Of a stretch of 40,892 nucleotides of DNA, positions 14,809 through 39,256 are shown one piece after another. How positions within the stretch are numbered: position 1 is the stretch's first letter; each line of letters starts with the position of its first letter. Source of the DNA: an uncultured Planctomycetia bacterium (GTDB taxonomy: Bacteria > Omnitrophota > Gorgyraeia > 1-14-0-20-64-10); assembly GCA_964372955.1 (NCBI GenBank), contig CAYJTC010000003.1, forward strand, positions 1 through 40,892. Reading direction: 5' to 3'. The position numbers were made by a program, and so were the translations under genes. The notes under the pieces are model-generated. The model saw nothing but the letters and a program-made list of their open reading frames with translations. It was not told the DNA's origin and searched no databases.

Positions 14809-16146
14809 ATGAAAACAGCAAACGAATCGACCCCTCTGCGCAGGGCGCTGGGGGTCTGGGACGCCACGGCGCTGGTGGTCGGATGCGTGATCGGGGCCGG
14901 GATCTTCCGGACCGCCGCCTCGGTGGCGGCCCACCTGCACACGCCCGGCTTGGTGATGGGGGTGTGGCTGGCCGGCGGGGCGATCTCCTTCTGCGGGGCC
15001 CTCTGCTACGCGGAGCTGGGGGCCGCCTATCCTAAGACCGGCGGGGATTACGTCTACCTGGACCGGGCCTATGGCCGGACCGTCGGGTTTTTATTCGGCT
15101 GGACCAAGCTGTTCACCGAGCGGATCGGAACGATCGCGATCTTGGGTTTTGTCTTCGCCGAATACCTGGGGTCCGTGTGGGGCTTGGGGCCGCTTGCGAC
15201 CAAAGGGTTGGCCGCCGGGGCGATCGCACTTTTAACCGGGGCCAATCTCATCGGGGTTCATGTCGGCAAGGGGGTGCAGAATCTCCTGACCGTTTTGAAG
15301 CTGGCGGCCCTGATGGGGATCATCGCCGCCGGCCTCTTAGCCGGCAAGGCTCAGCCGGAGTTGATCCGGAGCGCCTCCTTCGTCCCGCTGGATGGCAAGA
15401 CCCTTCCCTCCTTCGGGGTGGCCCTGGTGTTCGTGCTCTGGACTTACGGGGGCTGGACCGAGTCCTCCTACGTGGCCGAGGAGATTCGGGATCCTCATCG
15501 GGCCCTGCCCTGGTCGATCCTGCTGGGCTTGAGTGTGGTGACCGGGCTGTATCTGGCGGTCAACTGGGTCTACCTGCTCTACATTCCGTTGGACCAGATG
15601 CAGGGCCGGCCCTTAGTGGCGGCGGAAGTCATGAAGGCCGCTGTGGGACCGGCGGGAGCGACGGTCACTTCCTTGATGGTGGCCTGCTCCGCCTTCGGGG
15701 CCTTGAACGGCTATATCCTGACCAGCGGGCGGATCCTCCTGGCTGTCGGCCGGGACCACCCCCTCTTCTCCCGGCTGGCGGCGGTCCATCCCCGGTTCGC
15801 CACGCCGGCGACCGCTCTGGTGTTCAACGCGACCGCCGCGGCGCTGCTTCTTGGGTTCGGCACCTTTGATCAGATCGTGACCTACTCCACCGTCGTCATC
15901 TCCCTCTTCTTCGCGATGGCCGCCTTCAGCGTCATCCTGCTTCGGATCCGGGATCCCCACCGGGCGCGGCCCTACCGGGTCTGGGGCTATCCGGTGACCC
16001 CGCTCCTTTTCGTAGCCGCGATGGTCTGGTTCATCGCGGATGTGACCTGGATGCAGCCCAAGGAGGCGCTGTGGGGGTTCGGGCTGCTGGCGCTGGGCCT
16101 GCCGGTGTACGGCTGGTCCCGAATGCTGGAGCGCAGGGGGGTGTAG
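14809..16146 (+). CDS. APC-superfamily amino acid permease
   Basis: 12-TM pattern: VVGCVIGAGIFRTA...CYAELGAAYPKTGGDYVY...TYGGWTES. Confidence 0.85.
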   Translation: MKTANESTPLRRALGVWDATALVVGCVIGAGIFRTAASVAAHLHTPGLVMGVWLAGGAISFCGALCYAELGAAYPKTGGDYVYLDRAYGRTVGFLFGWTKLFTERIGTIAILGFVFAEYLGSVWGLGPLATKGLAAGAIALLTGANLIGVHVGKGVQNLLTVLKLAALMGIIAAGLLAGKAQPELIRSASFVPLDGKTLPSFGVALVFVLWTYGGWTESSYVAEEIRDPHRALPWSILLGLSVVTGLYLAVNWVYLLYIPLDQMQGRPLVAAEVMKAAVGPAGATVTSLMVACSAFGALNGYILTSGRILLAVGRDHPLFSRLAAVHPRFATPATALVFNATAAALLLGFGTFDQIVTYSTVVISLFFAMAAFSVILLRIRDPHRARPYRVWGYPVTPLLFVAAMVWFIADVTWMQPKEALWGFGLLALGLPVYGWSRMLERRGV

Positions 16147-16282
16147 GGTGAAGGGTGGAAGGTGGAGGGGAAGAACGATTTTTTGGGGGGTTGCTTTATT
16201 GGTTTTCCCTCCACCCTTGACCCTTGACCCTTCACCCTTCACCCTTCACCCTTCACCCTTCACCCTCGACCCTTCACCTTCA
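16147..16282. repeat. Heptamer-array hairpin element H3
   Basis: Left arm: GGTGAAG GGTGGAA GGTGGAG (16147-16167). Core begins GAAGAACGA (16170-16178). Right arm: about 11 units of CCCT(C/T)(C/G/T)A, mainly CCCTTCA (16207-16282). Same heptamer as H1. Confidence 0.9.
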
Positions 16283-26611: not shown

Positions 26612-26661
26612 TTGTCATTTCCTGCCCAGATAAGATATATTTAAGATTGATGAAAATCAAT
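26612..26661 (+). promoter_or_regulatory. Promoter P1 (TTGTCA-18 nt-TATATT) plus palindromic operator ATTGAT-GAAA-ATCAAT
   Basis: Sits in an AT-rich island within GC-rich DNA. -35 at 26612-26617, -10 at 26636-26641, palindrome at 26646-26661. The 9-mer TTTCCTGCC in the spacer is shared with P2. Confidence 0.5.
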
Positions 26662-26696: not shown

Positions 26697-26924
26697 ATGG
26701 CATCCGAAATTTTAACCGTAGGGCAAGTTGCGGAACTTCTCCATTTGCATCCGATGACCGTTTACCGTCTGGCCAAAGAGGGCAAACTCCCTGGTTTCAA
26801 GGTGGGGGGCCGCTGGCGGTTTGACCGGGGAGCGATGGAGATCTGGATGGTGGACCGGGCTCAAGTGGCCAAGCTGGAGGGGGAGATCCGCCGATTGAAG
26901 TCATCAGGAGAAACTCATGGATAA
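26697..26924 (+). CDS. Excisionase-family (HTH_17, MerR-like) DNA-binding protein with a coiled-coil tail
   Basis: LTVGQVAELLHLHPMTVYRLAKEGKLPGFKVGGRWRFDRGAMEIWM is the classic HTH_17 signature. Confidence 0.8.
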   Translation: MASEILTVGQVAELLHLHPMTVYRLAKEGKLPGFKVGGRWRFDRGAMEIWMVDRAQVAKLEGEIRRLKSSGETHG

Positions 26925-27312
26925 AACGAGGATTTTGCTGGTGGATGATGAGCCGGACCTGGTTCAACTGGTCGCATTGAGGCTGCAGGCGGCCGGGTAC
27001 GCGGTGACCGCCGCTTACGACGGCCAGCAGGGGCTGGATCAGGCGAAGAAATCGCGGCCGGATCTGATCATTTTGGATTTGATGCTGCCTAAAATGGACG
27101 GGTACAAAATCTGCCGCCTGTTGAAGTTTGATGAGCGATACAAATCGGTCCCCATCCTGATCTTCACCGCCAGGGCCCAGGCGGAGGATGTTAAGCTGGC
27201 GATGGACTGTGGAGCCGACGCTTACTTAACCAAACCGTTTGAAGCCCCCGTTCTTCTGGGAAAGCTCGCCGAGCTGCTCCAGAAGGCGAAGGCGGGGGAA
27301 AGAAAGGAGTGA
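26917..27312 (+). CDS. Receiver-only response regulator RR1
   Basis: LLVDDEPD...DLIILDLMLPKMDG...ILIFTA...YLTKPF. No output domain. Overlaps the HTH gene by 8 nt. Confidence 0.9.
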   Translation: MDKTRILLVDDEPDLVQLVALRLQAAGYAVTAAYDGQQGLDQAKKSRPDLIILDLMLPKMDGYKICRLLKFDERYKSVPILIFTARAQAEDVKLAMDCGADAYLTKPFEAPVLLGKLAELLQKAKAGERKE

Positions 27313-27317
27313 TTCCG

Positions 27318-27713
27318 ATGGAACAGTCCACACTGCTGTTGGTGGATGATGAGGCGGACCTCTTGGATTCCCTTAAAACCGATTTGGAGATACAGGGATA
27401 CCGGGTGCTGACCGCTTTAGACGGAACCATTGCCTTGGAGAGCGCCCGGAGCCAACAGCCGGACCTGATTCTTTTGGACTTGATGCTGCCCCGGCTGGAT
27501 GGGTACCATGTGCTTAAGCTTTTGAAGTCGGATGAGCGATACCGGAAGATCCCGGTGCTGGTGATCACCGCCCGGGCTGACGCGCAGGATCTGATGCTGG
27601 CTTTGGAATGCGGAGCCGACGGATGCCTGGTCAAACCGATTCAGCGAGAGGCCTTGCTGGAACGGATCCGGGCTCTGGTGAGTCCTCCCAGCGGAGAGGG
27701 AGCCGCTCTGTGA
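27318..27713 (+). CDS. Receiver-only response regulator RR2 (paralogue of RR1)
   Basis: LLLVDDEAD...DLILLDLMLPRLDG...VLVITA...CLVKPI. ATG at 27318 with AAAGGAG upstream; a GTG at 27309 is the alternative. Confidence 0.9.
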   Translation: MEQSTLLLVDDEADLLDSLKTDLEIQGYRVLTALDGTIALESARSQQPDLILLDLMLPRLDGYHVLKLLKSDERYRKIPVLVITARADAQDLMLALECGADGCLVKPIQREALLERIRALVSPPSGEGAAL

Positions 27714-29296
27714 GAGGCCGTTCTCAGACGCTGGACCAATGGCTTAACCGCCTGGAGACCCAGCTTCAGCTGGACCGCCTGATGGTGGGATGCTGCCAAG
27801 CGCTGCTGGAGTTCAGCGGCGCCGACCGCTGCTCGATCATGGTGCTGGACAATAAGTCAGAAGAACTGGTGGTCCGCTGGGCGCAGGGCAGCCGGGTCAA
27901 GCCGCGGAACCTCCAGCCGAACCTGAAATTCCGAGTGGGCGAAGGGCTTTGCGGCTGGGTGGCCCGTTCCCAGAAGGCCTTCTGCACGGTCGACGCCACC
28001 AAGGAGCCCCGCTTCCTTCCGTTTCGTGAGAAAGAAGCCGCGCGGCTGCGTCCGGTCCGGGCGATCTGCTGTCTGCCTCTGGTGCTGGAAGGCCGCACGG
28101 TCGGGGTCGTCAACCTGTCCAGTCTTTCCTCCTCCAAAAAGTTCCGCCGCGTTCAGGGATCGGAAGTCCACCGCTTTCTGAACCGTCTGGGCCGCGTGAT
28201 CGGGCAGGCGACCCTCCTGCATGAGATGGAGGCCTCCTCCCGGCGTTTCAGAGCGATGGCCAAGGCGACTTCCCAGACCGTGGCGCAGGTCAGCCACGAG
28301 GTGCGCACCCCTTTGTCCTTGATCACCGAAGGGACCCAGCAGCTGCTCGACGGCTTAGTCGGAGAGCTCACCCCGCCGCTTCAAGAGCGCGTGCTGTTCA
28401 TCAAGCATCAGGCGGACCGAATGCTCCAGTTGGTGACCGAGCTGCTGGACATCTCCCGGATTGAGGCGGGCCGTCTGGTTCCTCACCGGCAGCCGATGAA
28501 GCTGGATTCGGTGATCGAGGAGGTCCGCCGCAGCTACGAGCCGCTGGTAGCTCCCCGGCGGCTGACCCTGGAGCTGGATCCGGTTCCGCCGGTTTACGCC
28601 GACCGGATGCGGGTGGCGCAGATTCTGGAAAATCTGCTCACCAACGCGGTCAAATTCACGCCGCCCGAGGGGTCGATCACCCTGCGGCTGTCGGCCCGCG
28701 GATCCTCCGCTGAATTGGCGGTCTCGGACACCGGGATCGGCATTTCCAAAGGGGAACAGCGCCGGCTGTTCGAAAAATTCTTCCAGCCCAAAACGCCGGC
28801 CAGCTTCGCCCACCGGGGGACTGGGCTGGGGCTGGCGATCGTCAAAGAGATCGTCCAGCTTCATGGGGGGACGATCCGCGTCTCTTCCGAGCCCAACCGC
28901 GGAACCACCTTTATCGTGAGCCTTCCTTTATACACGCCGGCCTTCGCCTTGACGGAGGAGTTCCGGGTGATGCGGGAGCAGGCGGCCCGGGAGGGAGTTT
29001 CGCTCGTCTTCCAGCTTCTGAGGAACGGCTCGATCGATCGGCCGGAGGTGGTGGATCTTTTGCGCCGGCATCTGGCCCGGGAGGACCGGGTGTTGGTGAA
29101 TCCTCAGGGGGGTGGGCTGGCGATCCTTTCCGTCTGCGATCCGGCCGGCTCCCAGGCTCTGCGCCGCCGGCTGGAGGATCTGCTGGCCTCCAAACCGGAG
29201 TGGGTGGATCTGAAGAATCTGCGCTGGAGCTCGGTGCTGGTTCCCCAGGAGAGCTCGGAGCTGGCCGGCGTGATACAGATGGCCCACCAGCGATGA
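27710..29296 (+). CDS. Soluble sensor histidine kinase HK1: GAF, HisKA, HATPase_c, and a degenerate GGDEF-like C-terminal domain
   Basis: GTG at 27710 overlaps the RR2 stop (GTGA). GAF: ADRCSIMVLD...GLCGWVA...VGVVNLSS. H-box SHEVRTPL. N/G boxes NLLTNAVKFT, DTGIGI, GTGLGLAIV. No TM segment. Confidence 0.85.
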   Translation: MRGRSQTLDQWLNRLETQLQLDRLMVGCCQALLEFSGADRCSIMVLDNKSEELVVRWAQGSRVKPRNLQPNLKFRVGEGLCGWVARSQKAFCTVDATKEPRFLPFREKEAARLRPVRAICCLPLVLEGRTVGVVNLSSLSSSKKFRRVQGSEVHRFLNRLGRVIGQATLLHEMEASSRRFRAMAKATSQTVAQVSHEVRTPLSLITEGTQQLLDGLVGELTPPLQERVLFIKHQADRMLQLVTELLDISRIEAGRLVPHRQPMKLDSVIEEVRRSYEPLVAPRRLTLELDPVPPVYADRMRVAQILENLLTNAVKFTPPEGSITLRLSARGSSAELAVSDTGIGISKGEQRRLFEKFFQPKTPASFAHRGTGLGLAIVKEIVQLHGGTIRVSSEPNRGTTFIVSLPLYTPAFALTEEFRVMREQAAREGVSLVFQLLRNGSIDRPEVVDLLRRHLAREDRVLVNPQGGGLAILSVCDPAGSQALRRRLEDLLASKPEWVDLKNLRWSSVLVPQESSELAGVIQMAHQR

Positions 29297-29715
29297 AGAA
29301 AATCTTGATTGTGGAGGATGAGCCGGATTTAGCGAAGCTCATGCAGATGAGGCTGGCCTCCGCCGGTTATGAAACGTGCGTCGCGCCTGACGCTCTCGTG
29401 GCGGTGGAAGCGGCCCACCGGTTTGGGCCGAACCTGATTCTTCTGGATCTGATGCTCCCGGCCGGCGGCGGCCTGGGGGTCCTCAACGGCCTGAAGGCCT
29501 CCATCTACACCGCCTCCATCCCGGTCCTGGCGGTGACCGCCATCCCCCGCAACACCTTCGCGGACGAGAAGTTGCTTTTGGACAAGATCGACCAGATAGG
29601 TCTGGCTGGATACCTGCAGAAGCCTTTTGATCCCAAGGCGCTGTTGTCGGAGATTGAGCGCCTTTTATCGGGGTCGGAGCGCCGCGGCCCTTCGGGAAAC
29701 GAAACCAAAGAGTGA
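29293..29715 (+). CDS. Receiver-only response regulator RR3
   Basis: ILIVEDEPD...NLILLDLMLP...VLAVTA...YLQKPF. ATGA overlap with HK1. Confidence 0.85.
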   Translation: MKKILIVEDEPDLAKLMQMRLASAGYETCVAPDALVAVEAAHRFGPNLILLDLMLPAGGGLGVLNGLKASIYTASIPVLAVTAIPRNTFADEKLLLDKIDQIGLAGYLQKPFDPKALLSEIERLLSGSERRGPSGNETKE

Positions 29716-29724
29716 GGTGAGACC

Positions 29725-30105
29725 ATGAAGACGGTTCTGATCATCGATGACGAGCCCGACGTCAGGGCCCTGTTGAACGTGCGGCTGACCGCCAACGGGA
29801 TGAAGATCCTGGAAGCCCCCGACGGGCCCTCCGGCATCGCCCTGGCCAAAGAACAGCGACCGGATTTGATCCTGCTGGACATCATGATGCCGACGATGGA
29901 CGGGGTGGAGACGTTTCACGCCCTCAAGAAAGATCCCCAAACTCAGAAGATCCCGGTCATCTTTTTGACCGTCCTGGCCCAGAACATCGAGCTGACCAAG
30001 CACAACCTGGGGGTGGGGGACAGCTACGCGATCTTAAGCAAGCCCTATCATCCGCAGGAGCTGATCGGAGAGATCCGCCGGGCGCTGGGAGAAGAGTCCC
30101 CATGA
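29725..30105 (+). CDS. Receiver-only response regulator RR4
   Basis: VLIIDDEPD...DLILLDIMMPTMDG...VIFLTV...ILSKPY. Confidence 0.9.
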   Translation: MKTVLIIDDEPDVRALLNVRLTANGMKILEAPDGPSGIALAKEQRPDLILLDIMMPTMDGVETFHALKKDPQTQKIPVIFLTVLAQNIELTKHNLGVGDSYAILSKPYHPQELIGEIRRALGEESP

Positions 30106-31757
30106 CGGAAGCGGTCCGGCGTCCTGAAGAGGAGCTGGTCGAAGAAGGGCTGATCACCGCCGAGCAGCTGCGGCAGGCTCAGGCGGAGGCGGTCCGGTCC
30201 GGACAGACGGTCCGGCAGGCGCTGGTCCGGTTGAAATGGATCGATCCGGGCACCCTGGCCCAATGGCTGAGCCGCTTCTTGGGGATCCCGCGGGTGGAGC
30301 TGGGCTCCTACCTGGTCGACGCCCAGGTACTGGAGGCCCTGCCGGAAGCGCTGGCCCGGAAGCACCGGGTGATCCCCTTGTTCAAGCTGGGCCAGACCCT
30401 GACGGTGGCCACCGCGGATCCGATGAACCTGGCGGCCTTGGATGAGCTGCGCCTGCGCACCCACATAACCATCGACCCGGTGGTGGCCACGGAGGAGGAG
30501 ATCCTCCAGGCGATCGAAGAGTATTACGGGGCCAAGGGGCATCTCGAGGAGCTGGTCACCGATCTGACCCAGGAGAAGCTGGGCCTGAAGGCCGGCCAGG
30601 CCCCCGAGCTCAAGCGTCTTCAGGGGCTGGTCACCGAGCCGCCGGTGATTCGGCTGGTGAACCTGCTCTTAAGCGACGCGATCCGGGCCCGCGCTTCCGA
30701 CATCCATTTGGAGCCGGAGAAGGAGATCTTCCGGGTCCGGTTCCGGGTGGACGGGATCCTGAGGGAGGCGACCACCTTGCCTAAACACTTAGAGCCGGCG
30801 GTGGTTTCCCGGGTCAAGATCCTGGCCAATCTCGACATCGCGGAACGGCGCAGGCCCCAGGATGGGCGGTTCCGGGTGGCGATGGAGGGGCACGAGGTGG
30901 ACCTGCGGATCTCGGTGATGCCCTGCATCGATGGAGAGGCGGTGGTCTTAAGACTGCTGGACACTCAGGGCCTGAGGGTGGGGTTGGAGGAGCTGGGGAT
31001 GGAGCCGGAGCTGTTTTCCAGGTATCAGGCCCTCTTGAAGCGCAGCTGGGGGATTCTCCTGGTGACCGGCCCCACCGGCTCTGGCAAGACCACGACCCTG
31101 TACGCTTCCCTGGCCGGCCTGAACGCGGTGGAGCAAAACATCGTCACCCTTGAAGATCCGGTCGAATACCGGTTGGACGGCATTCGGCAGATCCCAATCA
31201 ACCCGGCGGTGGGGCTGACCTTCGCCACGGGACTGCGCTCTATCTTACGGCAGGATCCCAACGTGATCATGGTCGGAGAGATCCGGGACCAGGAGACTGC
31301 CGAAATGGCTATTCAGGCGGCCTTGACCGGGCACCTGGTCTTTTCCACCCTACACACCAACGACGCCCCCACGGCGATCACCCGCCTGCTGGACATGGGG
31401 ATCGAGCCGTTCCTGGTGGCCTCCAGTTTGATCGGGGTGGCGGCTCAGCGGCTGGTCCGGGTGATCTGCCCGGACTGCAAAGAGCCGGATCGGTCGGCGC
31501 CTGACGCCGGTTTTTTTAAAGGAAGGGGCTGCCGCAGGTGCGAGATGACCGGTTTCCGGGGCCGGATCGGGATCTTCGAGCTGATGGGTTTGGATGAGCA
31601 GATCAACCGTTTGACCCTGGCGAAAGGATCGGCGGCGCAGATCAAGGAGGCCGCGATCCAAAAAGGGATGCGGACCCTGCGGGAAGACGGGCTGGCTAAG
31701 GCGGCTTCCGGCGTCACCACGATCGATGAGGTGATGCGGGTGATCCAAGAACAGTGA
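30102..31757 (+). CDS. pilB: GspE/PilB-family type IV filament assembly ATPase with an N-terminal T2SSE_N (MshEN-like) domain
   Basis: Walker A GPTGSGKTTTLY, Walker B/Asp box DPNVIMVGEIRD, His box GHLVFSTLHTND, tetracysteine CPDC...CRRC. ATGA overlap with RR4. Confidence 0.9.
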   Translation: MTEAVRRPEEELVEEGLITAEQLRQAQAEAVRSGQTVRQALVRLKWIDPGTLAQWLSRFLGIPRVELGSYLVDAQVLEALPEALARKHRVIPLFKLGQTLTVATADPMNLAALDELRLRTHITIDPVVATEEEILQAIEEYYGAKGHLEELVTDLTQEKLGLKAGQAPELKRLQGLVTEPPVIRLVNLLLSDAIRARASDIHLEPEKEIFRVRFRVDGILREATTLPKHLEPAVVSRVKILANLDIAERRRPQDGRFRVAMEGHEVDLRISVMPCIDGEAVVLRLLDTQGLRVGLEELGMEPELFSRYQALLKRSWGILLVTGPTGSGKTTTLYASLAGLNAVEQNIVTLEDPVEYRLDGIRQIPINPAVGLTFATGLRSILRQDPNVIMVGEIRDQETAEMAIQAALTGHLVFSTLHTNDAPTAITRLLDMGIEPFLVASSLIGVAAQRLVRVICPDCKEPDRSAPDAGFFKGRGCRRCEMTGFRGRIGIFELMGLDEQINRLTLAKGSAAQIKEAAIQKGMRTLREDGLAKAASGVTTIDEVMRVIQEQ

Positions 31758-31760
31758 ATC

Positions 31761-31878
31761 CACGACTCATGCAAAACCGTTCGTGCTGATCCTGAGCAAA
31801 GTCGAAGGGTCGAAGCACGAAATGCCTCTTCACCCTTCGACAGGCTCAGGGTGAACGGCTCAGATTGCATGACTCGTG
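31761..31878 (+). mobile_element. MITE copy C (118 bp)
   Basis: Same TIRs as copy B. Direct repeat TGAATC at 31755-31760 (contains the pilB stop TGA) and at 31879-31884. It is inserted in the first heptamer of the H4 left arm. Confidence 0.85.
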
Positions 31879-31884
31879 TGAATC

Positions 31885-32098
31885 GTGAATAGTGGATAGT
31901 GAATCGTTATGAAAGTGCAGAGCTACAAAGAGCTGGAGGTTTGGAAGAAGGGGGTTGACATTGTGGGCCGTCGAAGGCATATTTCGGACGCTGAACTTGT
32001 CAAGCTAAACGAACATCTGGATCATGAAAGCCGAATGCTGATGAATTTGATCAAGCGGTTGCGGAGATGACGATCCACGATTCACGATCCACGATGGA
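31885..32098 (+). repeat. Heptamer-array hairpin element H4, enclosing a short ORF
   Basis: Left arm: GTGAATA GTGGATA GTGAATC (31885-31905), plus a MITE-split GTGAATC. Right arm: CGATCCA CGATTCA CGATCCA CGATGGA (32071-32098). The right arm is the reverse complement of the same TG(A/G)ATCG family. Confidence 0.85.
31909..32070 (+). pseudogene. Truncated four-helix-bundle protein gene (23S rRNA intervening-sequence protein / Avd-like family), 53 codons
   Basis: MKVQSYKELEVWKKGVDIV... matches the usual N-terminus (SYKDL.VWQKA). ...ESRMLMNLIKRLRR matches the usual C-terminus. The middle ~60-70 aa of a normal ~120-aa member are missing. Too short for the ORF track. Confidence 0.6.
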
Positions 32099-32108
32099 CA
32101 GTCTTTAG

Positions 32109-33335
32109 ATGCCCGCGTTCGCCTACCAGGCCAGAGATCAACAGGGGCGCCTCGTTCGGGGAATCTTGGAAGCGAAAAACCCCGTTTCTTTGGCGGAGCA
32201 TCTGCGGCGGATGGGCTACCTGGTCAGCCGGATGGATCCGGTGTCGGTCTCCGCTCAGAAGATTTTGAATCTTCGATGGGGCCGGGCGGTCAGTCCGGAA
32301 GGGCTTCTTTTGGCGGTGATCCAGCTGGCTAACTTAGTCGAGGCGGGCGTCCCGTTGATCGCCAGCCTCCAGTCGGTCGCTTCGCAGGCGGGGAGTCCCT
32401 CTTTACGGGAGGCGCTGGAAGCGGTTTGCCGGGAGGTGGAGGGGGGAACGCCGTTTTCTCAGGCCTTAAGCCATCAGCCCCCTGTTTTTCCCAAGCTGAT
32501 GGTCAGTCTGGTTTCCGTGGGAGAGGCCAGCGGCCATCTCGATGCGGTCCTGGCCCGGTTCGCCAGCTTTCTGGAGAAGGACTTGGCGTTGACCCGGGCG
32601 GTCCGGGGGGCTCTGCTTTATCCCGCTCTTTTGTTGACGGCGGCGGCCGGGCTGGTCCTGTTCGTTGTCACCTTCGTGGTCCCGCAGTTCGCCTCCCTGT
32701 TCGCCCGGGCCGGGATCGGGCTGCCTACACCGACTCGGATCCTGCAGGCGATCGGGGAAGCGATCCGGACCCGATGGTTGCTTTTGCTGGGATTAGTCGG
32801 GGTGGCGCTGGGGGGCATCGGGTGGGCTCTGAGAATTCCCGCGGTCCGTTTCCGGATCGATCAGGGGCTCCTGAAACTTCCGGTGATAGGCCCTTCCATC
32901 CATCAGGCGGTGGTGGCCCGGTTCGCCCGAACGCTGGCCACCCTGGTCTCCAGTGGTGTTCCAATCGTCGGCGCCCTTGAAACGGCCGAAGGAGTGGTGG
33001 AGAATCAGGTGATCGTTCAGGAGCTGCGGCGGGTCCGGACCGCCGTGGTGCAGGGGGAACGGATCGCCGCCACCTTGGCGGTCAGCGGGGTCTTTCATCC
33101 GGATGCCATTCAGATGATCCGGGTGGGGGAAGAGGCCGGCCGGCTGGACGCGATGCTGGAGAAGATTGCCGACTTCTATGAGCTCCAGGTCAACTATCGA
33201 TTGAGGCAGATGACCACCCTGCTGGAGCCGATTCTGCTGGTGGCCATGGGCGGGGTGGTGGCGTTCATCATGGCCTCTTTACTGCTTCCGATGTTTGACA
33301 TGGTGAAGGTTCTTCAGCGAGGAGGATTTCGGTGA
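32109..33335 (+). CDS. pilC: GspF/PilC-family platform protein
   Basis: Two T2SSF repeats: SLVSVGEASGHLDAVL... and MIRVGEEAGRLDAML... with the LLEPILLVAMGGVV TM pattern. Confidence 0.9.
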   Translation: MPAFAYQARDQQGRLVRGILEAKNPVSLAEHLRRMGYLVSRMDPVSVSAQKILNLRWGRAVSPEGLLLAVIQLANLVEAGVPLIASLQSVASQAGSPSLREALEAVCREVEGGTPFSQALSHQPPVFPKLMVSLVSVGEASGHLDAVLARFASFLEKDLALTRAVRGALLYPALLLTAAAGLVLFVVTFVVPQFASLFARAGIGLPTPTRILQAIGEAIRTRWLLLLGLVGVALGGIGWALRIPAVRFRIDQGLLKLPVIGPSIHQAVVARFARTLATLVSSGVPIVGALETAEGVVENQVIVQELRRVRTAVVQGERIAATLAVSGVFHPDAIQMIRVGEEAGRLDAMLEKIADFYELQVNYRLRQMTTLLEPILLVAMGGVVAFIMASLLLPMFDMVKVLQRGGFR

Positions 33336-33796
33336 AAAGGAGAAAGGGTTTCACCTTGGTGGAACTAATCATTGTGATCGCCGTCATCGCGATTCTTTTG
33401 GGGATCGCCCTGCCGCGCCTTCGGGGCATGATCGACGAAGGCAACACCGCCAAGGCAGCGGCGGAACTGCGGGCGCTTCAGGCGGCGGTGGAGTCCTATT
33501 ACATCCATAACTCCAAGACCTATCCGGCCGACGGCAGCGCCACCTGGCAATCGGCCCTGACTGCCGCCAGCACCAGACCCAAGCTGATCGGCACTGCCTT
33601 GAATGACCCGTTCGCCATCTCGGCGACCCAGTACCAGTATGACAAGTCGGCCAACGGCCTTTACTACATCATCTGGTCGGTCGGCGTGGACAACACCGCC
33701 GACATCACCGGCATCGACAACACCGGCGCTTTGACCGGCACCGCGGACGACGACATCTATGTTTCCAACGGCATCTCCGGCACTGGAGGCTTTTAG
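33332..33796 (+). CDS. GspG-like major pseudopilin / type IV pilin (prepilin-type N-terminus)
   Basis: KGFTLVELIIVIAVIAILLGIALP cleavage/methylation motif with Glu+5. GspG-like LQAAVESYY...YP...DPF...YYIIWSVGVDN...DDDIY. GTG start overlaps the pilC stop. Confidence 0.85.
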   Translation: MKRRKGFTLVELIIVIAVIAILLGIALPRLRGMIDEGNTAKAAAELRALQAAVESYYIHNSKTYPADGSATWQSALTAASTRPKLIGTALNDPFAISATQYQYDKSANGLYYIIWSVGVDNTADITGIDNTGALTGTADDDIYVSNGISGTGGF

Positions 33797-33822
33797 AGTC
33801 GGCTCTAAAAAAGCCGGCTTTT
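33797..33822 (+). terminator. Possible (leaky) terminator after the major pilin gene
   Basis: AGTCGGCT (33797-33804) pairs with AGCCGGCT (33812-33819) with one G-U pair, a 7-nt loop, then TTT. Confidence 0.45.
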
Positions 33823-33891
33823 GGGTTAAACTTCGCCAACACTCGCCATTCCTCTTTGTTTTTAGCCAATAGTGTCAAAGTACCCCCTCCA

Positions 33892-33921
33892 TTGACAAGC
33901 TTTCCTGCCGCCAGCCATACT
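33892..33921 (+). promoter_or_regulatory. Promoter P2 (TTGACA-18 nt-CATACT), giving a near-leaderless HK2 mRNA
   Basis: TTGACA at 33892-33897 and CATACT at 33916-33921. The ATG at 33932 has no SD. TTTCCTGCC (33901-33909) is shared with P1. Confidence 0.45.
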
Positions 33922-33931
33922 TTGAATTGGA

Positions 33932-35284
33932 ATGAGAGAGAAATCGTACTTGACTGTGGAAGAGGTGGCGGATCGCTTCGGAGTCAATCCGACGACGGTC
34001 TACCGGATGGTCCAGACCGGCAAGCTGCCCGGCTTCAAGCTGGGAGGCCAATGGCGTTTCAGCGAAGAGGCGCTGGAGAAGTGGGTGGGTGACCGGGGGA
34101 ACGTTCAGGAGCAGTTGGAGGCCAAGGGCCGCTTGCTGGAGGAGGCCCATCGGCGCCTTCAGGAGCTCTCCCGGCTGAAGGATGAGTTCGTGGCCAGTGT
34201 CAACCATGAGCTCCGGACCCCCTTGACAGTCGTCAAGGAGGGAGTCAGTCTCCTGACCGATGAAGTTTTAGGCCCGCTCAATGAGAAGCAGAAGGACTTT
34301 CTCGGGACGGTCCATCAAAACATCCAACGCTTGGAAGCGCTCATCTGGGATCTGCTGGATCTCTCGAAGATCGAGGCTGGGCGGCTGCCTCTGTTTAAGA
34401 CCCGGGTGCCGTTGCGGGACCTGCTGGAGAAGGCGCTTTCAAGCTACAAGAAGATCGCCAAGAACCGGACCCTTCAGTTGAAAATCGAAGAGGTCCCGGA
34501 CGTCTTCGCGGATCCTAACCGAGTCCTTCAGGTGATCGGCAACCTCTTTTCCAACGCGGTGAAGTTTACGCGGGAAGATGGAAGGATCACGCTGGCGGCC
34601 CAAAAGTCCAATGGGATGGTGGCGCTCTCCGTCCAGGATGACGGCCTGGGGATCGCCCCGGAGGATTTGCCTAAACTTTTCCAGAAGTTTTCTCAATTGG
34701 GAAAAGAGATGACAGTCCGCCGGGGGACCGGCTTGGGGCTGGCTCTCTGCAAACAGCTGGTGGAGATGCATCAAGGAACCATCGGAGTCCATTCAGCGCC
34801 CGGAAAGGGATCCACCTTTACCTTTACCCTGCCGGTCTATTCCCCCCGGTTCGCTTTGGAAGAGACCTTTGGAAGGCTGCTGAAGTCGGCCGGGTCGGAC
34901 AAGGCAGTCAGTCTGCTGACGATCGACTGCAGCGCTTTTCTAGAAGAGAAAGAGATCGGGTTGCCCGACTCGATGGCTCGGGTCCCAAAGGTGGCTGAGT
35001 TTGTGCAGGCGTATGTTCATCAAGGGGACGCGGTCTTGAGCGTAGAGCCCCGCTGGGTGGTGATTCTGGCTCCCGTGGACTCCGAGGGAGCGCAAGCCCT
35101 GCGAAATCGGCTGGAAGAGCTGTTGAACGACTGGCGCGAGCTGGTTCGGGAAGAGAAGCCGCATCAGCGGCTCTCGCTAGGGATAGCGACCTATCCGGAA
35201 GATGGCCCGGAGGCGCTGGCACTTTTTGCCAAGGCGACAGGAGCTTCTTTAAATAGCTTTTCATTCCTCACCGCAATCCGCTAA
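33932..35284 (+). CDS. Histidine kinase HK2 with an N-terminal excisionase-type HTH: HTH_17, coiled coil, HisKA, HATPase_c, degenerate GGDEF-like domain
   Basis: LTVEEVADRFGVNPTTVYRMVQTGKLPGFKLGGQWRFSEEALEKWV. H-box NHELRTPL. NLFSNAVKFT, DDGLGI, GTGLGLALC. C-terminal ...VVILAPVDSEGAQALRNRLEELL...RLSLGIATYPEDGPEALALFAKA. Confidence 0.85.
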   Translation: MREKSYLTVEEVADRFGVNPTTVYRMVQTGKLPGFKLGGQWRFSEEALEKWVGDRGNVQEQLEAKGRLLEEAHRRLQELSRLKDEFVASVNHELRTPLTVVKEGVSLLTDEVLGPLNEKQKDFLGTVHQNIQRLEALIWDLLDLSKIEAGRLPLFKTRVPLRDLLEKALSSYKKIAKNRTLQLKIEEVPDVFADPNRVLQVIGNLFSNAVKFTREDGRITLAAQKSNGMVALSVQDDGLGIAPEDLPKLFQKFSQLGKEMTVRRGTGLGLALCKQLVEMHQGTIGVHSAPGKGSTFTFTLPVYSPRFALEETFGRLLKSAGSDKAVSLLTIDCSAFLEEKEIGLPDSMARVPKVAEFVQAYVHQGDAVLSVEPRWVVILAPVDSEGAQALRNRLEELLNDWRELVREEKPHQRLSLGIATYPEDGPEALALFAKATGASLNSFSFLTAIR

Positions 35285-35295
35285 TCTATAGATCC

Positions 35296-35718
35296 ATGGT
35301 CCCAAAGCGGTCCTCCGGGTTCACCCCATTAGACAGGCAAAGCCGCCGTCTAACGGGGTTCACCTTAATCGAGGTGATGATCGCGATCCTGCTTATTGTC
35401 GGGGCGGTGGCCTCCGCCGCCTTCATGATGGGACGGGGGATGTTCGCGGCCACCGACACCGAAACTCTTCAACAGGGGATCGCCCTGGCCCAGGAGAAGA
35501 TGGAAAATCTTCGGGGCACCGCTTTCGCCTCCATCGCCAGCGAATCCCGCGCTCCAATTGGCGGTTGGACCGGTTTCGAGCGGCAGGTCGCGGTTTCCCA
35601 ACCGGCCGGCACCAACAGCGACTTCAAGCAGGTGGGGGTGACCGTCTACTGGAGCACCGTGGAAGGAGAACTCTCCACCTCGCTGACCACCTACGTCGCC
35701 AATGTCATCAATAACTAA
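35296..35718 (+). CDS. Minor (pseudo)pilin, GspI/PilV-like
   Basis: TGFTLIEVMIAILLIVGAV prepilin motif after an unusually long ~21-aa leader. 140 aa. Confidence 0.75.
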   Translation: MVPKRSSGFTPLDRQSRRLTGFTLIEVMIAILLIVGAVASAAFMMGRGMFAATDTETLQQGIALAQEKMENLRGTAFASIASESRAPIGGWTGFERQVAVSQPAGTNSDFKQVGVTVYWSTVEGELSTSLTTYVANVINN

Positions 35719-35724
35719 CAAACC

Positions 35725-35789
35725 GGTTGAAAGTTTAAAGTTTAAAGTCTCAAATTTTCGGTTTAACTTCCAACCTTCAACCTTAAACT
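35725..35789. repeat. Heptamer-array hairpin element H5 (AT-rich)
   Basis: Left arm: GGTTGAA AGTTTAA AGTTTAA AGTCTCA (35725-35752). 9-nt loop. Right arm: TTTAACT TCCAACC TTCAACC TTAAACT (35762-35789). Confidence 0.85.
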
Positions 35790-35806
35790 TGCGACTAGCG
35801 TTGCGA

Positions 35807-36319
35807 ATGAGGGGGGTTACCTTGGTTGAGCTGATCATCACGCTGCTGCTGTTCGCCGCGCTCATGACGGCAATCGCGATGGGACTCAATCCCCTCCTGC
35901 TGGCTTGGTCGAGCCACCAGGACCGGATGGAGCTTCAGCGGGAAACACAGCACGGGCTGGAGCGGGCGATCCGGGACCTGCGGGGGGCGACCGCTCTTCA
36001 GAACGACGCCAACCACGCGATCCGCTACACCCTCCGGGAAAGCGGGGTGAGCAACTCCTACATCCTTTACTTGTACAACGCCTCGGACGTTTGGCCGCCG
36101 GCCTACAACCAAGCGACCTATCAACTGCGCAAGATCAGCTTGACCGGCGGGATCAACGGAACCTTTACCTACGGAAGCGGCACCCTCTTGATGCGGGATA
36201 TCCGGCCCCCCGCGAACTCGGACCTGTCGGTCAGCAGTAAAGTGGCCACCCTGGACCTATCGCTGACGCGCTTTGATGAGACCTTTCGGCTGGTCGAACG
36301 GGTGAAGCGAAGAAATTGA
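35807..36319 (+). CDS. Minor (pseudo)pilin, GspJ/PilW-like
   Basis: MRGVTLVELIITLLLFAALMTAIA prepilin-like N-terminus. Start moved to the ATG at 35807, because upstream track codons translate H5. Confidence 0.7.
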   Translation: MRGVTLVELIITLLLFAALMTAIAMGLNPLLLAWSSHQDRMELQRETQHGLERAIRDLRGATALQNDANHAIRYTLRESGVSNSYILYLYNASDVWPPAYNQATYQLRKISLTGGINGTFTYGSGTLLMRDIRPPANSDLSVSSKVATLDLSLTRFDETFRLVERVKRRN

Positions 36320-37152
36320 AGACGCGTCCGCGGGGATCCATCCTGGTGATGACGATGGCGCTGGCGATCCTGCTGGTGAGCCTGGTGGGGGGGTTCCTTT
36401 TCGCCACGGGTGTTTTCATCTCCAACAGCGGCTGGGAGGAGACCGACATGAAAACCTTCTGGCTGGCGGAGGCCGGTCTCCAGAAGGGGATCTGGAATTT
36501 AAAGACCCCAACCGGCTCCGGCGGGCAGGGGGAGAACTGGACCACCGCCGGCACGACGGAAAATTTGAGCGGCGGCAGCTACACCCTGGTAGTGGCCCGA
36601 TACGATTTCGCTCTGGCGGCCAACGGGGCGACCGCTTCGGCCTCTTCGTCCGGAGGGGGAACGGTGCCTGGCAACGCCATCGATGGAAACGACGGAACTT
36701 ACTGGGAATCTGGGGGAAACCCCAGCAACAGCAACCCTCAAGACCTAATCATCCAGTTCCCTTACACGCTCACGATCAACAAGGTCCGGTTCCTGGCCCC
36801 CACCGCCAGCACACGGCCTCGGGACTACGAATGGGCCGTTTCCACGGATGGCAGCAGCTACACGACGGTGGTGACGGTGAGCAACAACAATGTCACTGAT
36901 CGGACCGATACTTTTTCCGCCCAGTCCAATGTGAATTACCTGCGACTGCGCACGACGCAAGACGGCCAGAACAATCCGCAGCGAGTAAGGGTCTCCACTC
37001 TGGAGGCGATTGGGAGTAAAATCACCTCAGCCGGGACGGTCACCGCCACCGGGCAGAATTACACCCGGACCGTGATCCAAACGGTGGTGACGGACGACGG
37101 ATCGCCGCAGAACCAGGTGGCCTACTACGAGCCGGATTGGGTAGAGCAGTAG
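36316..37152 (+). CDS. GspK/PilX-like minor pilin with a C-terminal F5/8 type C (discoidin, galactose-binding-like) domain
   Basis: N-terminal hydrophobic helix SILVMTMALAILLVSLVGGFL, then AEAGLQKGIWNL (PilX_N-like). Later NAIDGNDGTYWESGG...IIQFPYTLTINKVRFL...YEWAVSTDGSSYTTV is typical of a discoidin domain. TTG start. Confidence 0.7.
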   Translation: MKTRPRGSILVMTMALAILLVSLVGGFLFATGVFISNSGWEETDMKTFWLAEAGLQKGIWNLKTPTGSGGQGENWTTAGTTENLSGGSYTLVVARYDFALAANGATASASSSGGGTVPGNAIDGNDGTYWESGGNPSNSNPQDLIIQFPYTLTINKVRFLAPTASTRPRDYEWAVSTDGSSYTTVVTVSNNNVTDRTDTFSAQSNVNYLRLRTTQDGQNNPQRVRVSTLEAIGSKITSAGTVTATGQNYTRTVIQTVVTDDGSPQNQVAYYEPDWVEQ

Positions 37153-37169
37153 AAGAGCATATCCCTACG

Positions 37170-38747
37170 ATGAAGCCTAGACGGATTATAGGGTTGGATT
37201 TAGGCCATGCCGCCTATAAGCTGGCGGTCGTCGAGCCGCGGGACGCCCAGGCGGTCCTGGTCGATCTGCGGTGGCAGGATCTCCCTCCCCAGGCGGACCC
37301 GAACGCCCGCCGTGCCGCTTTGAAGAAACTGCTGGAAGGGATTCCGGTTTCAAAGTCCACCGGTGTGGTCAGCATCGTGGACGACCCGTACGGCTGCCTT
37401 CAGCAGGTGACGGTTCCTGCCATGACCGGCGCGGAGTTAGCCGAAGCGATCCGGTGGGAGCTTCAGCGCTATCTGGCGGTCCCCCCGGAAGAGACCGTTG
37501 CCGATTACCAGCTCCTGGAGGAGATCGAGGAAGCCGGATCCAAGAGACTCAAGCTCCTGGCCGCCGCTCTGCCGACGGCGGCGATCCGGAATCAGCTGGC
37601 CTTTCTGGCGGCCGAAGAGATCCGCCCCTTCCGGCTGGTTCCGCCGGCCGCGGCGGTGGTCGCCTGGTGGGCTCACACCGGTGGAGCTTCCATGGAGATC
37701 CCTCAAGCCATTCTTTCCGTCGGTCAAAAGTCCTCGGAATTTCTGGTGGTGCAGGGCAAGAGGCTCCTGTTCGCGCGCAAGATCCCGGTGGCTGGAGGAG
37801 ATGTGACCCACGGAATGACCGGAGTCCTGATGACGGCGCAGGGGCAGGTGGGCCTCTCCGAAGCGGAGGCCGAACAGGTCAAGCGGGAAGCGGGGATCCC
37901 GGGGACCAACGCCCCGGAGGCGGTCATCAAAGGAATCTCCGGCATGCAGCTTTTGTCTCTCATCCGGGGGAGCCTGGAGCGGCTGGCGGCGGAGGTGGAA
38001 CGTTCTTTGGCCTTCTACGGGGAATCGGTGGCCGGCCCTCCGGTTTCGGAGCTGATCTTGATTGGAGGAGGAGCGCACTTGAAAGGACTGCCGGAATGGC
38101 TTCAGGAGCGGTTGAGGGTCCGGGTTTCGGTGCCGGGGCCGTTGGCCGACATTCCTCTGGCGCCCGGATTTTCGCCCGGCTCCGTCGCCGGGAAAGAGTT
38201 GAGCCTGATTCCGGCCCTGGGAGCGGCTTTAGGAGGGCAGGCCGGAATCAACCTTTTGCCTTTGGAGATGAAGGAAGCGGCTCGGCTTCAGGTCCGGCGT
38301 TCTCTCTTCACCGGAGCCGTGACGGCGATCCTGCTGGGAGCCGCGCTTCTTCGGGTCGGAATGGGAATTACCCGGCAGGTTCTGGAGACCCAGATTGCCG
38401 CTTTTCGTCTGGAGAAAGAGGCGATCGTGCCGGAGATGGCCCGGGCGAGGGTGGCCTTGGAGGTCCAGCAGAGGCAAAAACAGGAACCGCCCTGGGAGGA
38501 GATGTTCCGGCAGATGAGTTTAGCCCTTCCCCGGGAAGCCTATCTGACTGCCTTCAGCGTCGAGGAGCGCCGGATGACGCTTCGGGGGCGGGTCCGGGAT
38601 CTGGGCCGTGCCACCGATCTGGTCTTGGCCGGCTTCATCCGGAGCTTAAACGAGGGGGTTTTCACCGAGGCTCAGTTAGTCTCCAGCCGGCAGGATGAGA
38701 CCGGTTCCCGGGAGGCGGAGTTTGAAATTCGATGCTCCTTAAAATAA
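37170..38747 (+). CDS. pilM: PilM-PilN fusion protein (actin-like ATPase domain, TM helix, PilN-like periplasmic domain)
   Basis: IIGLDLGHAAYKLAVV..., ILIGGGAHLKGLPEWL (PilM), then INLLPLEMKEAARLQVRRSLFTGAVTAILLGAALL (PilN signature plus TM). Confidence 0.8.
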   Translation: MKPRRIIGLDLGHAAYKLAVVEPRDAQAVLVDLRWQDLPPQADPNARRAALKKLLEGIPVSKSTGVVSIVDDPYGCLQQVTVPAMTGAELAEAIRWELQRYLAVPPEETVADYQLLEEIEEAGSKRLKLLAAALPTAAIRNQLAFLAAEEIRPFRLVPPAAAVVAWWAHTGGASMEIPQAILSVGQKSSEFLVVQGKRLLFARKIPVAGGDVTHGMTGVLMTAQGQVGLSEAEAEQVKREAGIPGTNAPEAVIKGISGMQLLSLIRGSLERLAAEVERSLAFYGESVAGPPVSELILIGGGAHLKGLPEWLQERLRVRVSVPGPLADIPLAPGFSPGSVAGKELSLIPALGAALGGQAGINLLPLEMKEAARLQVRRSLFTGAVTAILLGAALLRVGMGITRQVLETQIAAFRLEKEAIVPEMARARVALEVQQRQKQEPPWEEMFRQMSLALPREAYLTAFSVEERRMTLRGRVRDLGRATDLVLAGFIRSLNEGVFTEAQLVSSRQDETGSREAEFEIRCSLK

Positions 38748-39256
38748 AAGAGCGGTCTCCTCGAGTTTTTTGGAGCGGTGTTGCGGCCTCCGGGCTCATT
38801 CTCCTTTGGGGGATCTATGGGCCTGCCTTGGCCGCGATCCGGAAAGCCGGCCTGGAGCGGGATCGACTTCACCGGGAGCTGATCCAATACCGGGGGATCA
38901 TCGATCCTCTGCGCCGGGGGGAACTGCCCACACTTCCCGAGGCCGGGGACGTTTCGACGGTTCTGGAGGAGCTCAACCGCCTGGCCCGCCAGCAGCAGAT
39001 TCGATTTCTGGAGGTGTCCCCCGGCGTTCTACGTCCCGGCGATCCCAAAGAAATGATGATTCTCCCGGTCGACCTGCAGCTGCAGGGAGAGTACCGAACC
39101 CTGGCGGAATTCCTCGGCCGGCTTTCCCAAACCCCTGCTTTGGGGGCGGTGACGGTGCGCCGGTTGAGCATCGACCGGGAGGAACGGTTCCTTCCCCGGC
39201 TGAAAGCCAGGCTGTCGCTGGAGATTTTCTTAAGCGGGGTAGGGCGTGAATCCTAA
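38732..39256 (+). CDS. pilO: PilO-like alignment protein
   Basis: N-terminal TM helix and coiled coil. LPVDLQLQGEYRTLAEFLGRLSQTPALGAVTVRRLSI is PilO-like. Confidence 0.7.
   Translation: MLLKIKERSPRVFWSGVAASGLILLWGIYGPALAAIRKAGLERDRLHRELIQYRGIIDPLRRGELPTLPEAGDVSTVLEELNRLARQQQIRFLEVSPGVLRPGDPKEMMILPVDLQLQGEYRTLAEFLGRLSQTPALGAVTVRRLSIDREERFLPRLKARLSLEIFLSGVGRES

Follow-up and report, generated by a model that had tools for sequence, protein, structure and literature searches.

The window analysed here, a 40,892-nucleotide stretch of contig CAYJTC010000003.1 (assembly GCA_964372955.1) from an uncultured bacterium assigned to the Omnitrophota, carries on its forward strand two modules of two-component signalling and type-IV-pilus-like genes, in which a helix-turn-helix (HTH) domain of the HTH_17 family occurs in two states. 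It is free-standing in module 1, as a 75-aa protein (26697..26924) encoded by the first gene of the module, whose stop codon overlaps the start of the gene for response regulator 1 (RR1). In module 2 it forms the N-terminus of a histidine kinase (HK), HK2 (33932..35284, 450 aa), in which it is followed by a coiled-coil helix, a dimerisation and histidine-phosphotransfer (DHp) domain, a catalytic ATP-binding (CA) domain and a degenerate GGDEF domain. We lean towards reading HK2 as an in-frame fusion of a small BldC-like HTH_17 gene with the kinase gene next downstream of it, the HTH being a third component, or DNA-binding partner, of the two-component system.

Both proteins were assigned to HTH_17 above the Pfam cutoff of 27 bits: the small protein over residues 6-51 (57 bits, E 2.3e-15), which also scored 50.1 bits with the TIGR01764 'excise' model (cutoff 28.8), and HK2 over residues 6-52 (33947..34087; PF12728, 65.5 bits, E 5.1e-18). 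A BLASTP alignment of the two (66 aa, 48% identity, E 1e-18) reaches into the start of the linker helix. The homology of the two HTHs proposed in a first-pass annotation, made by a model from the sequence alone, was thus borne out, and the open reading frame (ORF) coordinates and peptides that it had quoted for both proteins were correct. The nearest relatives of the HK2 HTH are free-standing proteins of 66-81 aa encoded in other genomes (60-74% identical), the 75-aa protein of the window being a more distant member with only 47-48% identity; since the free HTHs of other genomes are closer to that of HK2, the two HTHs of the window are old paralogues. The consensus of the close subfamily (MxxKxYLTVEEVAxRFGVNPTTVYRLAQRGxLPGFKVGNQWRFSExMLESWVADQVTxERLK) conserves HTH and wing positions that are common with DNA-bound BldC (T22, V23, Y24, R25, K36, G38, W41 and R42), the nearest solved structure (6AMK/6AMA, profile E 2e-5), and a helical tail past the HTH, ADQVTxERLK, is conserved in the small HTH subfamily. 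In its AlphaFold2 model, the HK2 domain displays the winged-helix topology, with a strand (residues 6-8), two helices (9-16 and 20-28), a beta-hairpin wing (35-37 and 40-44) and a C-terminal helix starting at residue 45 (block pLDDT 82-96). The small protein stayed under the cutoffs of the BldC family model (NF033787, 32.5 bits against 77) and of the MerR model (PF00376, 19.9 bits against 28.2), and HK2 gave no PF00376 match in Pfam. Sequence-specific DNA binding is predicted for the HTH_17 domains of both proteins.

The kinase part of HK2 is of class I (HisKA-type), as judged by the H-box of its HisKA/DHp domain (residues 83-150, 70 bits) and by the boxes of its CA domain (34511..34837, residues 194-302; Pfam HATPase_c, 108 bits, E 3.1e-31), and autophosphorylation and phosphotransfer are predicted from intact motifs (H92 in HELRTP, N204, G1 at 236, F at 250 and G2 at 265). 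In the AlphaFold2 model (87 sequences in the alignment, pLDDT 92.3), the kinase core superposes on HK853, which is the top Foldseek match of the CA domain, and on its relatives (best E 1.7e-21). A single uninterrupted helix spanning residues 45-109 (34064..34258; block pLDDT 87-96) comprises the last HTH helix, the linker and the first DHp helix, on which the phospho-acceptor His92 lies, in agreement with the earlier proposal that a coiled coil joins the HTH straight to the HisKA helix. By our reading of the sequence, the a/d positions of this helix from L62 to V90 are mostly hydrophobic, and GDRGN occupies residues 53-57. No PAS or GAF domain was matched in HK2 by Pfam and no membrane segment was found (Kyte-Doolittle 19-residue maximum 1.14), as the first-pass annotation had stated. 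HK2 is an orphan kinase, without an adjacent receiver gene. The DHp partner-specificity positions after the histidine read T, V, E, G and S in HK2 and S, L, E, G and Q in HK1, the kinase of module 1 (author's reading), and the four REC-only proteins of that module, candidate receivers for HK2, may serve both kinases.

The HTH had also been described as the only input domain of HK2, which overlooked a degenerate GGDEF-fold domain at its C-terminus (34844..35242, residues 305-437). The Pfam GGDEF model reached only 21.4 bits there (cutoff 23.8); modelled separately, the segment (pLDDT 87.5) retrieved GGDEF domains for all of its top 50 Foldseek matches in the PDB, with a TM-score of about 0.70 and up to 0.72 (best E 2e-5). 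In this model the GGDEF fold is present and the GG[DE]EF active-site signature is absent, being replaced by VEPRW; in alignment column counts, xEPxW stands in its place in 26-27 of 39 family sequences. D366 and R393, which lie 27 residues apart, are invariant in 39/39 members of the kinase family; as a lead only, they may correspond to the inhibitory-site residues of PleD, the register being ambiguous by ~2 residues. The same degenerate GGDEF-like extension forms the C-terminus of HK1 (28931-29296) and is common to the whole kinase subfamily. Among source-named homologues, the best matches to the HK2 core and GGDEF-like domain come from metagenome-assembled genomes of Candidatus Omnitrophica/Omnitrophota, whose N-terminal modules are PAS, GAF, CHASE, dCache or REC domains, or a coiled coil alone. 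By sequence and fold, the C-terminal domain may sense a nucleotide, possibly cyclic di-GMP (c-di-GMP).

The fused reading frame itself appears sound. An in-frame TGA (33923-33925) lies three codons 5' of the HK2 ATG, so that a start further upstream is impossible, and the HTH-kinase junction is spanned by contigs of four independent DNA runs with zero differences and zero gaps. Fused orthologues with the same N-terminus were found at three related loci (L001 and L168/L169), and between fused orthologues the ratio of nonsynonymous to synonymous substitution rates (dN/dS) is 0.05-0.15 over the first 53 codons, which encode the HTH, with synonymous sites near saturation. By this comparison the HTH codons of the fused genes are under purifying selection, and full-length HK2 is clearly under selection. 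It is barely credible, in consequence of these same junctions, orthologues and codons, that a frameshift of sequencing or assembly created the fusion or that the true translation start lies 3' of the HTH; the conserved promoter just upstream, with the ATG 10 nt past its -10 element and the stop three codons upstream, speaks against this too. What favours a later start is a GTG at codon 52 with a GGAG six nucleotides 5' of it, which would permit internal initiation, and an additional HTH-less isoform may arise from an internal start of this kind. The artefact reading is largely refuted already, and the profile match to HTH_17 in HK2, whose absence would have undone the first-pass proposal, is firmly present.

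From a metagenome scan, 80 loci were annotated with the window proteins as probes (169 loci were fetched overall), and the gene following the HTH was recorded wherever 800 nt or more of downstream sequence existed, which was so for 17 close-subfamily loci. It encodes a kinase in 9/17 cases, a REC protein in 6/17 and a T2SSE ATPase in 1/17; a kinase or REC gene is thus next downstream at 15 of the 17 loci, versus about 3 of 40 for more distant HTH_17 genes. The usual setting of the close subfamily is a pilus cluster with an MshEN-T2SSE ATPase. Gene orders include HTH, HAMP-HK, RR at L002-L004, a context with HTH, PAS-HK-GGDEF-like and four response regulators, and RR, HTH, HK, RR, MshEN-T2SSE, T2SSF at L005. 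At six loci (L087, L090, L092, L094, L104 and L110) the HTH stop and the kinase start overlap as ATGA or GTGA, and some of the kinases behind free HTHs own PAS, HAMP or membrane sensors. The response regulators of these clusters are all REC-only, leaving the HTH as the only DNA-binding module in the operons. A role as a true excisionase (recombination directionality factor) or in a prophage was considered for the small HTH protein and rejected, its neighbours being a membrane protein, REC, kinase and pilus genes; no mobile-element gene was found near it among the window ORFs scanned.

Some further architectures of HTH_17 were encountered in the same searches. One protein (P0297, 178 aa) consists of three tandem HTH_17 domains and nothing besides, and at five loci (L119, L125, L129, L141 and L147) a more distant HTH_17 is fused to a ~180-aa Cys-rich domain with CxFC...RC...CHAG motifs, in what looks like a different one-component architecture. 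On a 1.6-kb contig (L089, 273-974), a close-subfamily HTH runs in frame into a segment resembling periplasmic solute-binding proteins, which may be a chimeric assembly or another fusion.

The split counterpart of HK2 was recovered in related clusters. At L092, where the gene order is that of the window, a T2SSE gene (63% identical to that of the window) and a T2SSF gene are followed by a free HTH gene joined through ATGA to a kinase with a coiled coil and no sensor; this HTH is 73% identical to residues 1-55 of HK2, and the kinase matches HK2 with 50% identity in BLASTP and 59-69% in tblastx segments. The same split pair occurs at L104, followed there by RR, T2SSE and T2SSF genes. Relative to the L092 pair, HK2 lacks the tail of the HTH and a few residues from the kinase start, which leaves a compact helix (author's reading). 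The fused state occupies the position equivalent to that in the window at L168/L169 and L001, with L168 retaining the full two-module synteny: GAF-HK, RR, RR, MshEN-T2SSE, T2SSF, pseudopilin, HTH-HK, pseudopilins and a protein with an F5/8C domain. Compared with HK2, the fused genes of L001 (104-1006) and L168 (6197-7099) have a well-conserved promoter and HTH (79.5% nucleotide identity in L001) and a kinase core only ~45-50% identical, without the GGDEF-like domain and with a DUF2490 gene inserted downstream, which suggests that the kinase part was replaced, or diverged fast, behind a kept HTH.

Fusion of such an HTH to a kinase is, by these sequence searches, a rare architecture, as the first-pass annotation had supposed: at least six distinct fused proteins (HK2, P0083, P0183/P0366, P0184, P0250 and P0315) emerged from searches of billions of proteins. 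This count is a lower bound, the top 150 matches of an exhaustive phmmer search with HK2 residues 1-160 being mostly HisKA matches, with only P0183, P0184 and P0250 among them carrying an HTH. A word-index search with residues 1-120 returned free small HTHs only and missed the query's own protein, which makes it unusable for fusion counts. A contig scan with residues 1-160 was likewise discarded as uninformative on fusion, as it gave HisKA and coiled-coil matches only, mostly from Actinomycetota, and ORF reconstruction from them contained no HTH. Two of the fused proteins have an HTH subtype unlike that of HK2: P0250 (HTH-PAS-like-HK-GGDEF-like) and P0315 (HTH-x-HK-REC), which heads an operon of RR, RR, MshEN-T2SSE, T2SSF and pseudopilin genes; given this different subtype and architecture, they probably represent an independent fusion. 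The distance from Trp51 to the phospho-acceptor histidine varies from 42 aa in HK2 to 23 in P0083, 27 in P0183 and 21 in P0184, with Gly, Ser or Pro in the linkers of P0083 and P0183, and the intervening segment is PAS-like in P0250 and a REC remnant in P0315. Fusions to receivers also occur: REC-HTH with a close-subfamily HTH at L101 and, with more distant HTH_17 domains, REC-HTH at L114 and HTH-REC at L157/L162.

Promoters were predicted ahead of both HTH genes. P1 (26612..26641), a sigma-70-like promoter before the small HTH gene (TTGTCA-18 nt-TATATT, 10/12 in a consensus scan), is followed, between its -10 element and the ribosome-binding site, by a perfect inverted repeat, ATTGAT-N4-ATCAAT (26646..26661), as a candidate operator; short repeats such as this are common in AT-rich DNA. 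P2 (33892..33921; TTGACA-18 nt-CATACT) places the HK2 ATG 10 nt after its -10 element, so that a near-leaderless mRNA is predicted; it is kept in L001 and L168, and the same type of promoter occurs at L090, L093, L094 and L098. An 11-mer containing its -10 element, GSCATACTTTG, occurs at P2 of the window and also at 7/169 fetched loci, where it invariably lies upstream of an HTH operon and on its coding strand. The sites TTGACA-18 nt-CATACT-TTG (window 33892-33924; L002 7935-7945; L090 4959-4969; L093 4902-4912; L097 609-619; L105 42-52) may represent either a class of promoters specific to the lineage or the site of a regulator; a MerR-style mechanism at such promoters, where the spacer length is constant and its sequence varies, is speculative. 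A 9-mer common to P1 and P2, TTTCCTGCC, was rejected as a shared operator, having occurred in two or more copies in 11/100 shuffles and not being kept in the L001 promoter, and the inverted repeats near P1 and P2 were set aside as operators since they are short and their conservation is not established.

Second-messenger elements recur in the related clusters. Directly 5' of the small HTH gene or operon, six loci carry a c-di-GMP-I riboswitch aptamer (RF01051; L005 618-703, L086 4858-4942, L089 181-270, L100 3-81, L103 1517-1598 and L109 79-167), scoring 47-65 bits against a gathering score of 35, and matches under this threshold occur at L105, L108 and L097. In many loci a conserved terminator-like hairpin, GCCCATC...GATGGGC-TTTTT, follows the riboswitch. 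The window itself yielded no RF01051 match, not even at E<=1, and has the promoters described above instead. Taken together, the riboswitches, the MshEN ATPase and the degenerate GGDEF domains suggest that c-di-GMP is a likely signal for the module.

The genes around the two HTHs, all on the forward strand, complete this picture. The small HTH gene is followed by those for RR1 (26917..27312, 131 aa; Pfam Response_reg E 1.9e-29, no output domain) and RR2 (27309..27713, 134 aa; E 7.2e-28), both REC-only, and by HK1 (27707..29296), a GAF-HisKA-HATPase_c kinase by Pfam and kinase motifs, with the C-terminal GGDEF-like extension; its ORF opens at 27608 and its likely start, GTG 27707, overlaps the end of RR2. 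Two further REC-only regulators, RR3 (29293..29715, 140 aa; E 7e-17) and RR4 (29725..30105, 126 aa; E 5.5e-25), precede a PilB/GspE-type assembly ATPase (30102..31757; Pfam T2SSE E 4.9e-134, N-terminal MshEN 86.6 bits), whose NCBIfam PilB/GspE matches remain under the equivalog cutoffs, a PilC/GspF platform protein (32109..33335; Pfam T2SSF E 9.5e-60) and a pseudopilin (33332..33796; Pfam N_methyl and T2SSG). Between the ATPase and platform genes lies a 53-aa ORF (31909-32070) without a Pfam match and with promoter-like sites inside (31955-31983 and 31997-32025), which may be a gene remnant. Downstream of HK2, Pfam identified two pseudopilin-like ORFs, an F5/8-type-C protein, a PilM-PilN fusion and PilO (35296..39256), in a gene order that agrees with L001 and L168; in the fusion, a single ORF (37137-38747) comprises PilM (residues 60-365) and PilN (456-535), usually separate proteins. 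Elsewhere in the window, a long hairpin (16130-16267) was weakly matched, on both strands, by several unrelated models of microRNA precursors (lowest E 8e-4, far under gathering scores) and is most likely a mere long inverted repeat.

These observations are best accommodated, in our view, if two genes that neighbour each other in related genomes fused in frame to give HK2, and if the small HTH protein is a standing third component of two-component/type-IV-pilus-like operons. Since no response regulator of these clusters has anything but a receiver domain, DNA binding is most likely contributed by the HTH, and because of the REC-HTH fusions, its position at the head of operons and its repeated fusion to both kinases and receivers, it is most likely a partner or output module rather than a sensor. 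As such, it would act as an autoregulator or as transcriptional output at the operon promoters, in complex with the kinase and/or with phosphorylated receivers, and HK2 would be the hard-wired form of the HTH-kinase partnership. Its dimer would carry two HTHs atop a parallel coiled coil running into the DHp domain, so that the kinase would sit on DNA, or its state would set the geometry of DNA binding. The physical partnership with kinase or REC, the binding of promoter DNA and the direction of information flow are what we infer here. The first-pass annotation had taken the free and fused HTHs as Rosetta-stone evidence that the small protein works with HK1; the split/fused logic stands, and is much stronger across genomes than for the in-window pair, while the link to HK1 itself rests on operon membership and not on fusion.

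A bolder and more tentative extension is that these proteins are DNA-coupled kinases, in which the HTH pair is allosterically tied to the DHp domain. Promoter occupancy would then gate REC phosphorylation, or the kinase state, set through the GGDEF-like domain and possibly by c-di-GMP, would twist the HTHs and switch transcription without a DNA-binding regulator; the split systems would correspond to an undescribed three-component scheme (small BldC-like HTH, kinase and bare receivers) for type-IV-pilus-like machines in Omnitrophota-like bacteria.

Several points weigh against the fusion-partner interpretation. No conserved operator was identified at the cluster promoters, the 9-mer shared by P1 and P2 fitting chance, and the spacer of the promoter class is constant at 18 nt without being conserved in sequence. 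No response regulator gene adjoins HK2, and neighbouring genes can fuse without any physical interaction of their products. The HTH lies in the N-terminal slot of the usual sensors, with a rigid-looking helix to the DHp domain, which fits an input role equally well. Finally, BldC binds direct repeats head-to-tail (PMC5859096), a mode with no evident fit to paired HTHs on a coiled coil that is parallel and symmetric.

The input role just mentioned, close to the first-pass proposal that DNA occupancy is the signal, would have operator DNA or partner binding shift the N-terminal helices, and the coiled coil switch the DHp domain between autokinase and phosphatase, as PAS or HAMP modules do. The HTH lies exactly in the sensor slot of the kinase subfamily, HK2 has no other N-terminal sensor, and the model helix is unbroken from the HTH to His92 with largely hydrophobic a/d positions; even so, we hold this role to be rather unlikely. 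One conserved allosteric transmission path is disfavoured because the HTH-to-His linker varies (21, 23, 27 or 42 aa, or inserted domains), leaving no conserved register; Gly, Ser or Pro residues stand in the linkers of P0083 and P0183, and GDRGN in that of HK2. The HTH is moreover fused to REC in both orders, in REC-HTH at the classic output position, and as a free protein it is encoded ahead of kinases equipped with their own PAS, HAMP or membrane sensors; DNA occupancy as the signal was not supported. With c-di-GMP riboswitches and MshEN ATPases in the clusters, the C-terminal GGDEF-like domain is at least as good an input candidate, and signal input would more plausibly come through it, or through partner proteins, than from DNA.

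The variable linkers suit a neutral fusion, in which the small HTH is an operon transcription factor without a physical link to the kinase, and in which deletions at the ATGA overlap fused the genes while both halves still work. Stop/start overlaps make fusing easy and fused forms are very rare relative to split ones. We nevertheless regard this as unlikely, given that the fusion has been kept at one locus in lineages whose overall identity is only 49-53%, with an HTH dN/dS of 0.05-0.15, and that the L001 and L168 kinase cores are strongly unlike that of HK2, yet the HTH and promoter were kept. The HTHs found in fusions are of two or more subtypes and are joined to REC domains as well as to kinases, and attachment to a dimeric kinase is unlikely to spare the DNA binding of the HTH. 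Quite improbable, lastly, is a TorI-like HTH that would be mainly an interaction module, docking receivers or the pilus ATPase onto the kinase rather than binding DNA. TorI, a winged helix of the excisionase type, has a response regulator as binding partner (PMC3509656), and the conserved tail ADQVTxERLK beyond the HTH of the small subfamily would suit such a contact; the conserved positions are, however, those HTH and wing residues that are common with DNA-bound BldC, and TorI itself also binds DNA.

Two-component signalling is usually described as passing from a sensor kinase to a DNA-binding regulator. In these clusters, where the regulators lack an output domain, a small BldC-like protein accompanies the kinase and is at times fused with it or with a receiver. 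Should this partnership be physical, two-component systems would have a third class of component, so far overlooked, a kinase that acts on or from DNA would be known from nature, and the large set of 'excisionase family' mini-proteins from uncultured bacteria would gain a function. Degenerate GGDEF domains, together with the c-di-GMP riboswitches and the MshEN ATPases, suggest a testable circuit, in which pilus-like machines would be under both second-messenger and phosphorelay control.

Among known systems, PilS-PilR is likewise a two-component system embedded in, and presumably controlling, a type-IV-pilus/T2SS-like cluster. PilR is a REC-AAA+-Fis-type DNA-binding regulator, whereas the regulators described here are REC-only and DNA binding is predicted to be supplied by HTH_17, either separate or fused to the kinase. 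In MerR regulators, as in HK2, a winged HTH leads into a long coiled-coil helix for dimerisation, with an effector-binding module behind it; their coiled coil is antiparallel, unlike the parallel helices that run into a DHp domain, the Pfam MerR score is under threshold here, and the 'effector module' of HK2 is a complete histidine kinase. HTH_17 has been described as MerR-like (PMC5859096), as has BldC of Streptomyces, a small MerR-like/Xis-like winged-HTH regulator solved bound to DNA (PDB 6AMA, 6AMK; PMC5859096). BldC, the nearest solved relative, has the size of the free-standing 66-81-aa proteins and is likewise a stand-alone DNA-binding regulator without an effector domain; in contrast, the small protein falls under the NCBIfam BldC cutoff, BldC is not tied to two-component genes or fused to a kinase, and its head-to-tail arrangement on direct repeats need not apply to two HTHs held together by a parallel coiled coil. 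Prophage KplE1 likewise encodes a small excisionase-type winged-helix protein with a functional tie to a two-component system: this excisionase, TorI, makes protein contacts by a C-terminal helix, through which it inhibits the response regulator TorR (PMC3509656). TorI is a recombination directionality factor accompanied by an integrase, whereas the neighbours in the window are two-component and pilus genes.

The closest known kind is that of the Bacteroides hybrid two-component systems, in which a kinase, a receiver and an AraC-type HTH are united in one polypeptide (cited in PMC10269533), collapsing the pathway into a single chain; in HK2, too, a kinase and a DNA-binding domain are joined in one protein. 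They are membrane-bound, with a periplasmic sensor and a receiver between the kinase and a C-terminal AraC HTH. HK2, in which no REC domain, AraC HTH or membrane segment was found, does not belong to this type, from which it differs in topology and in the kind and order of its domains: it is soluble and bears an N-terminal HTH_17 directly on its DHp helix. The combination of HTH_17, class I kinase and degenerate GGDEF domain was not described in the literature searched, each of these parts being known by itself.

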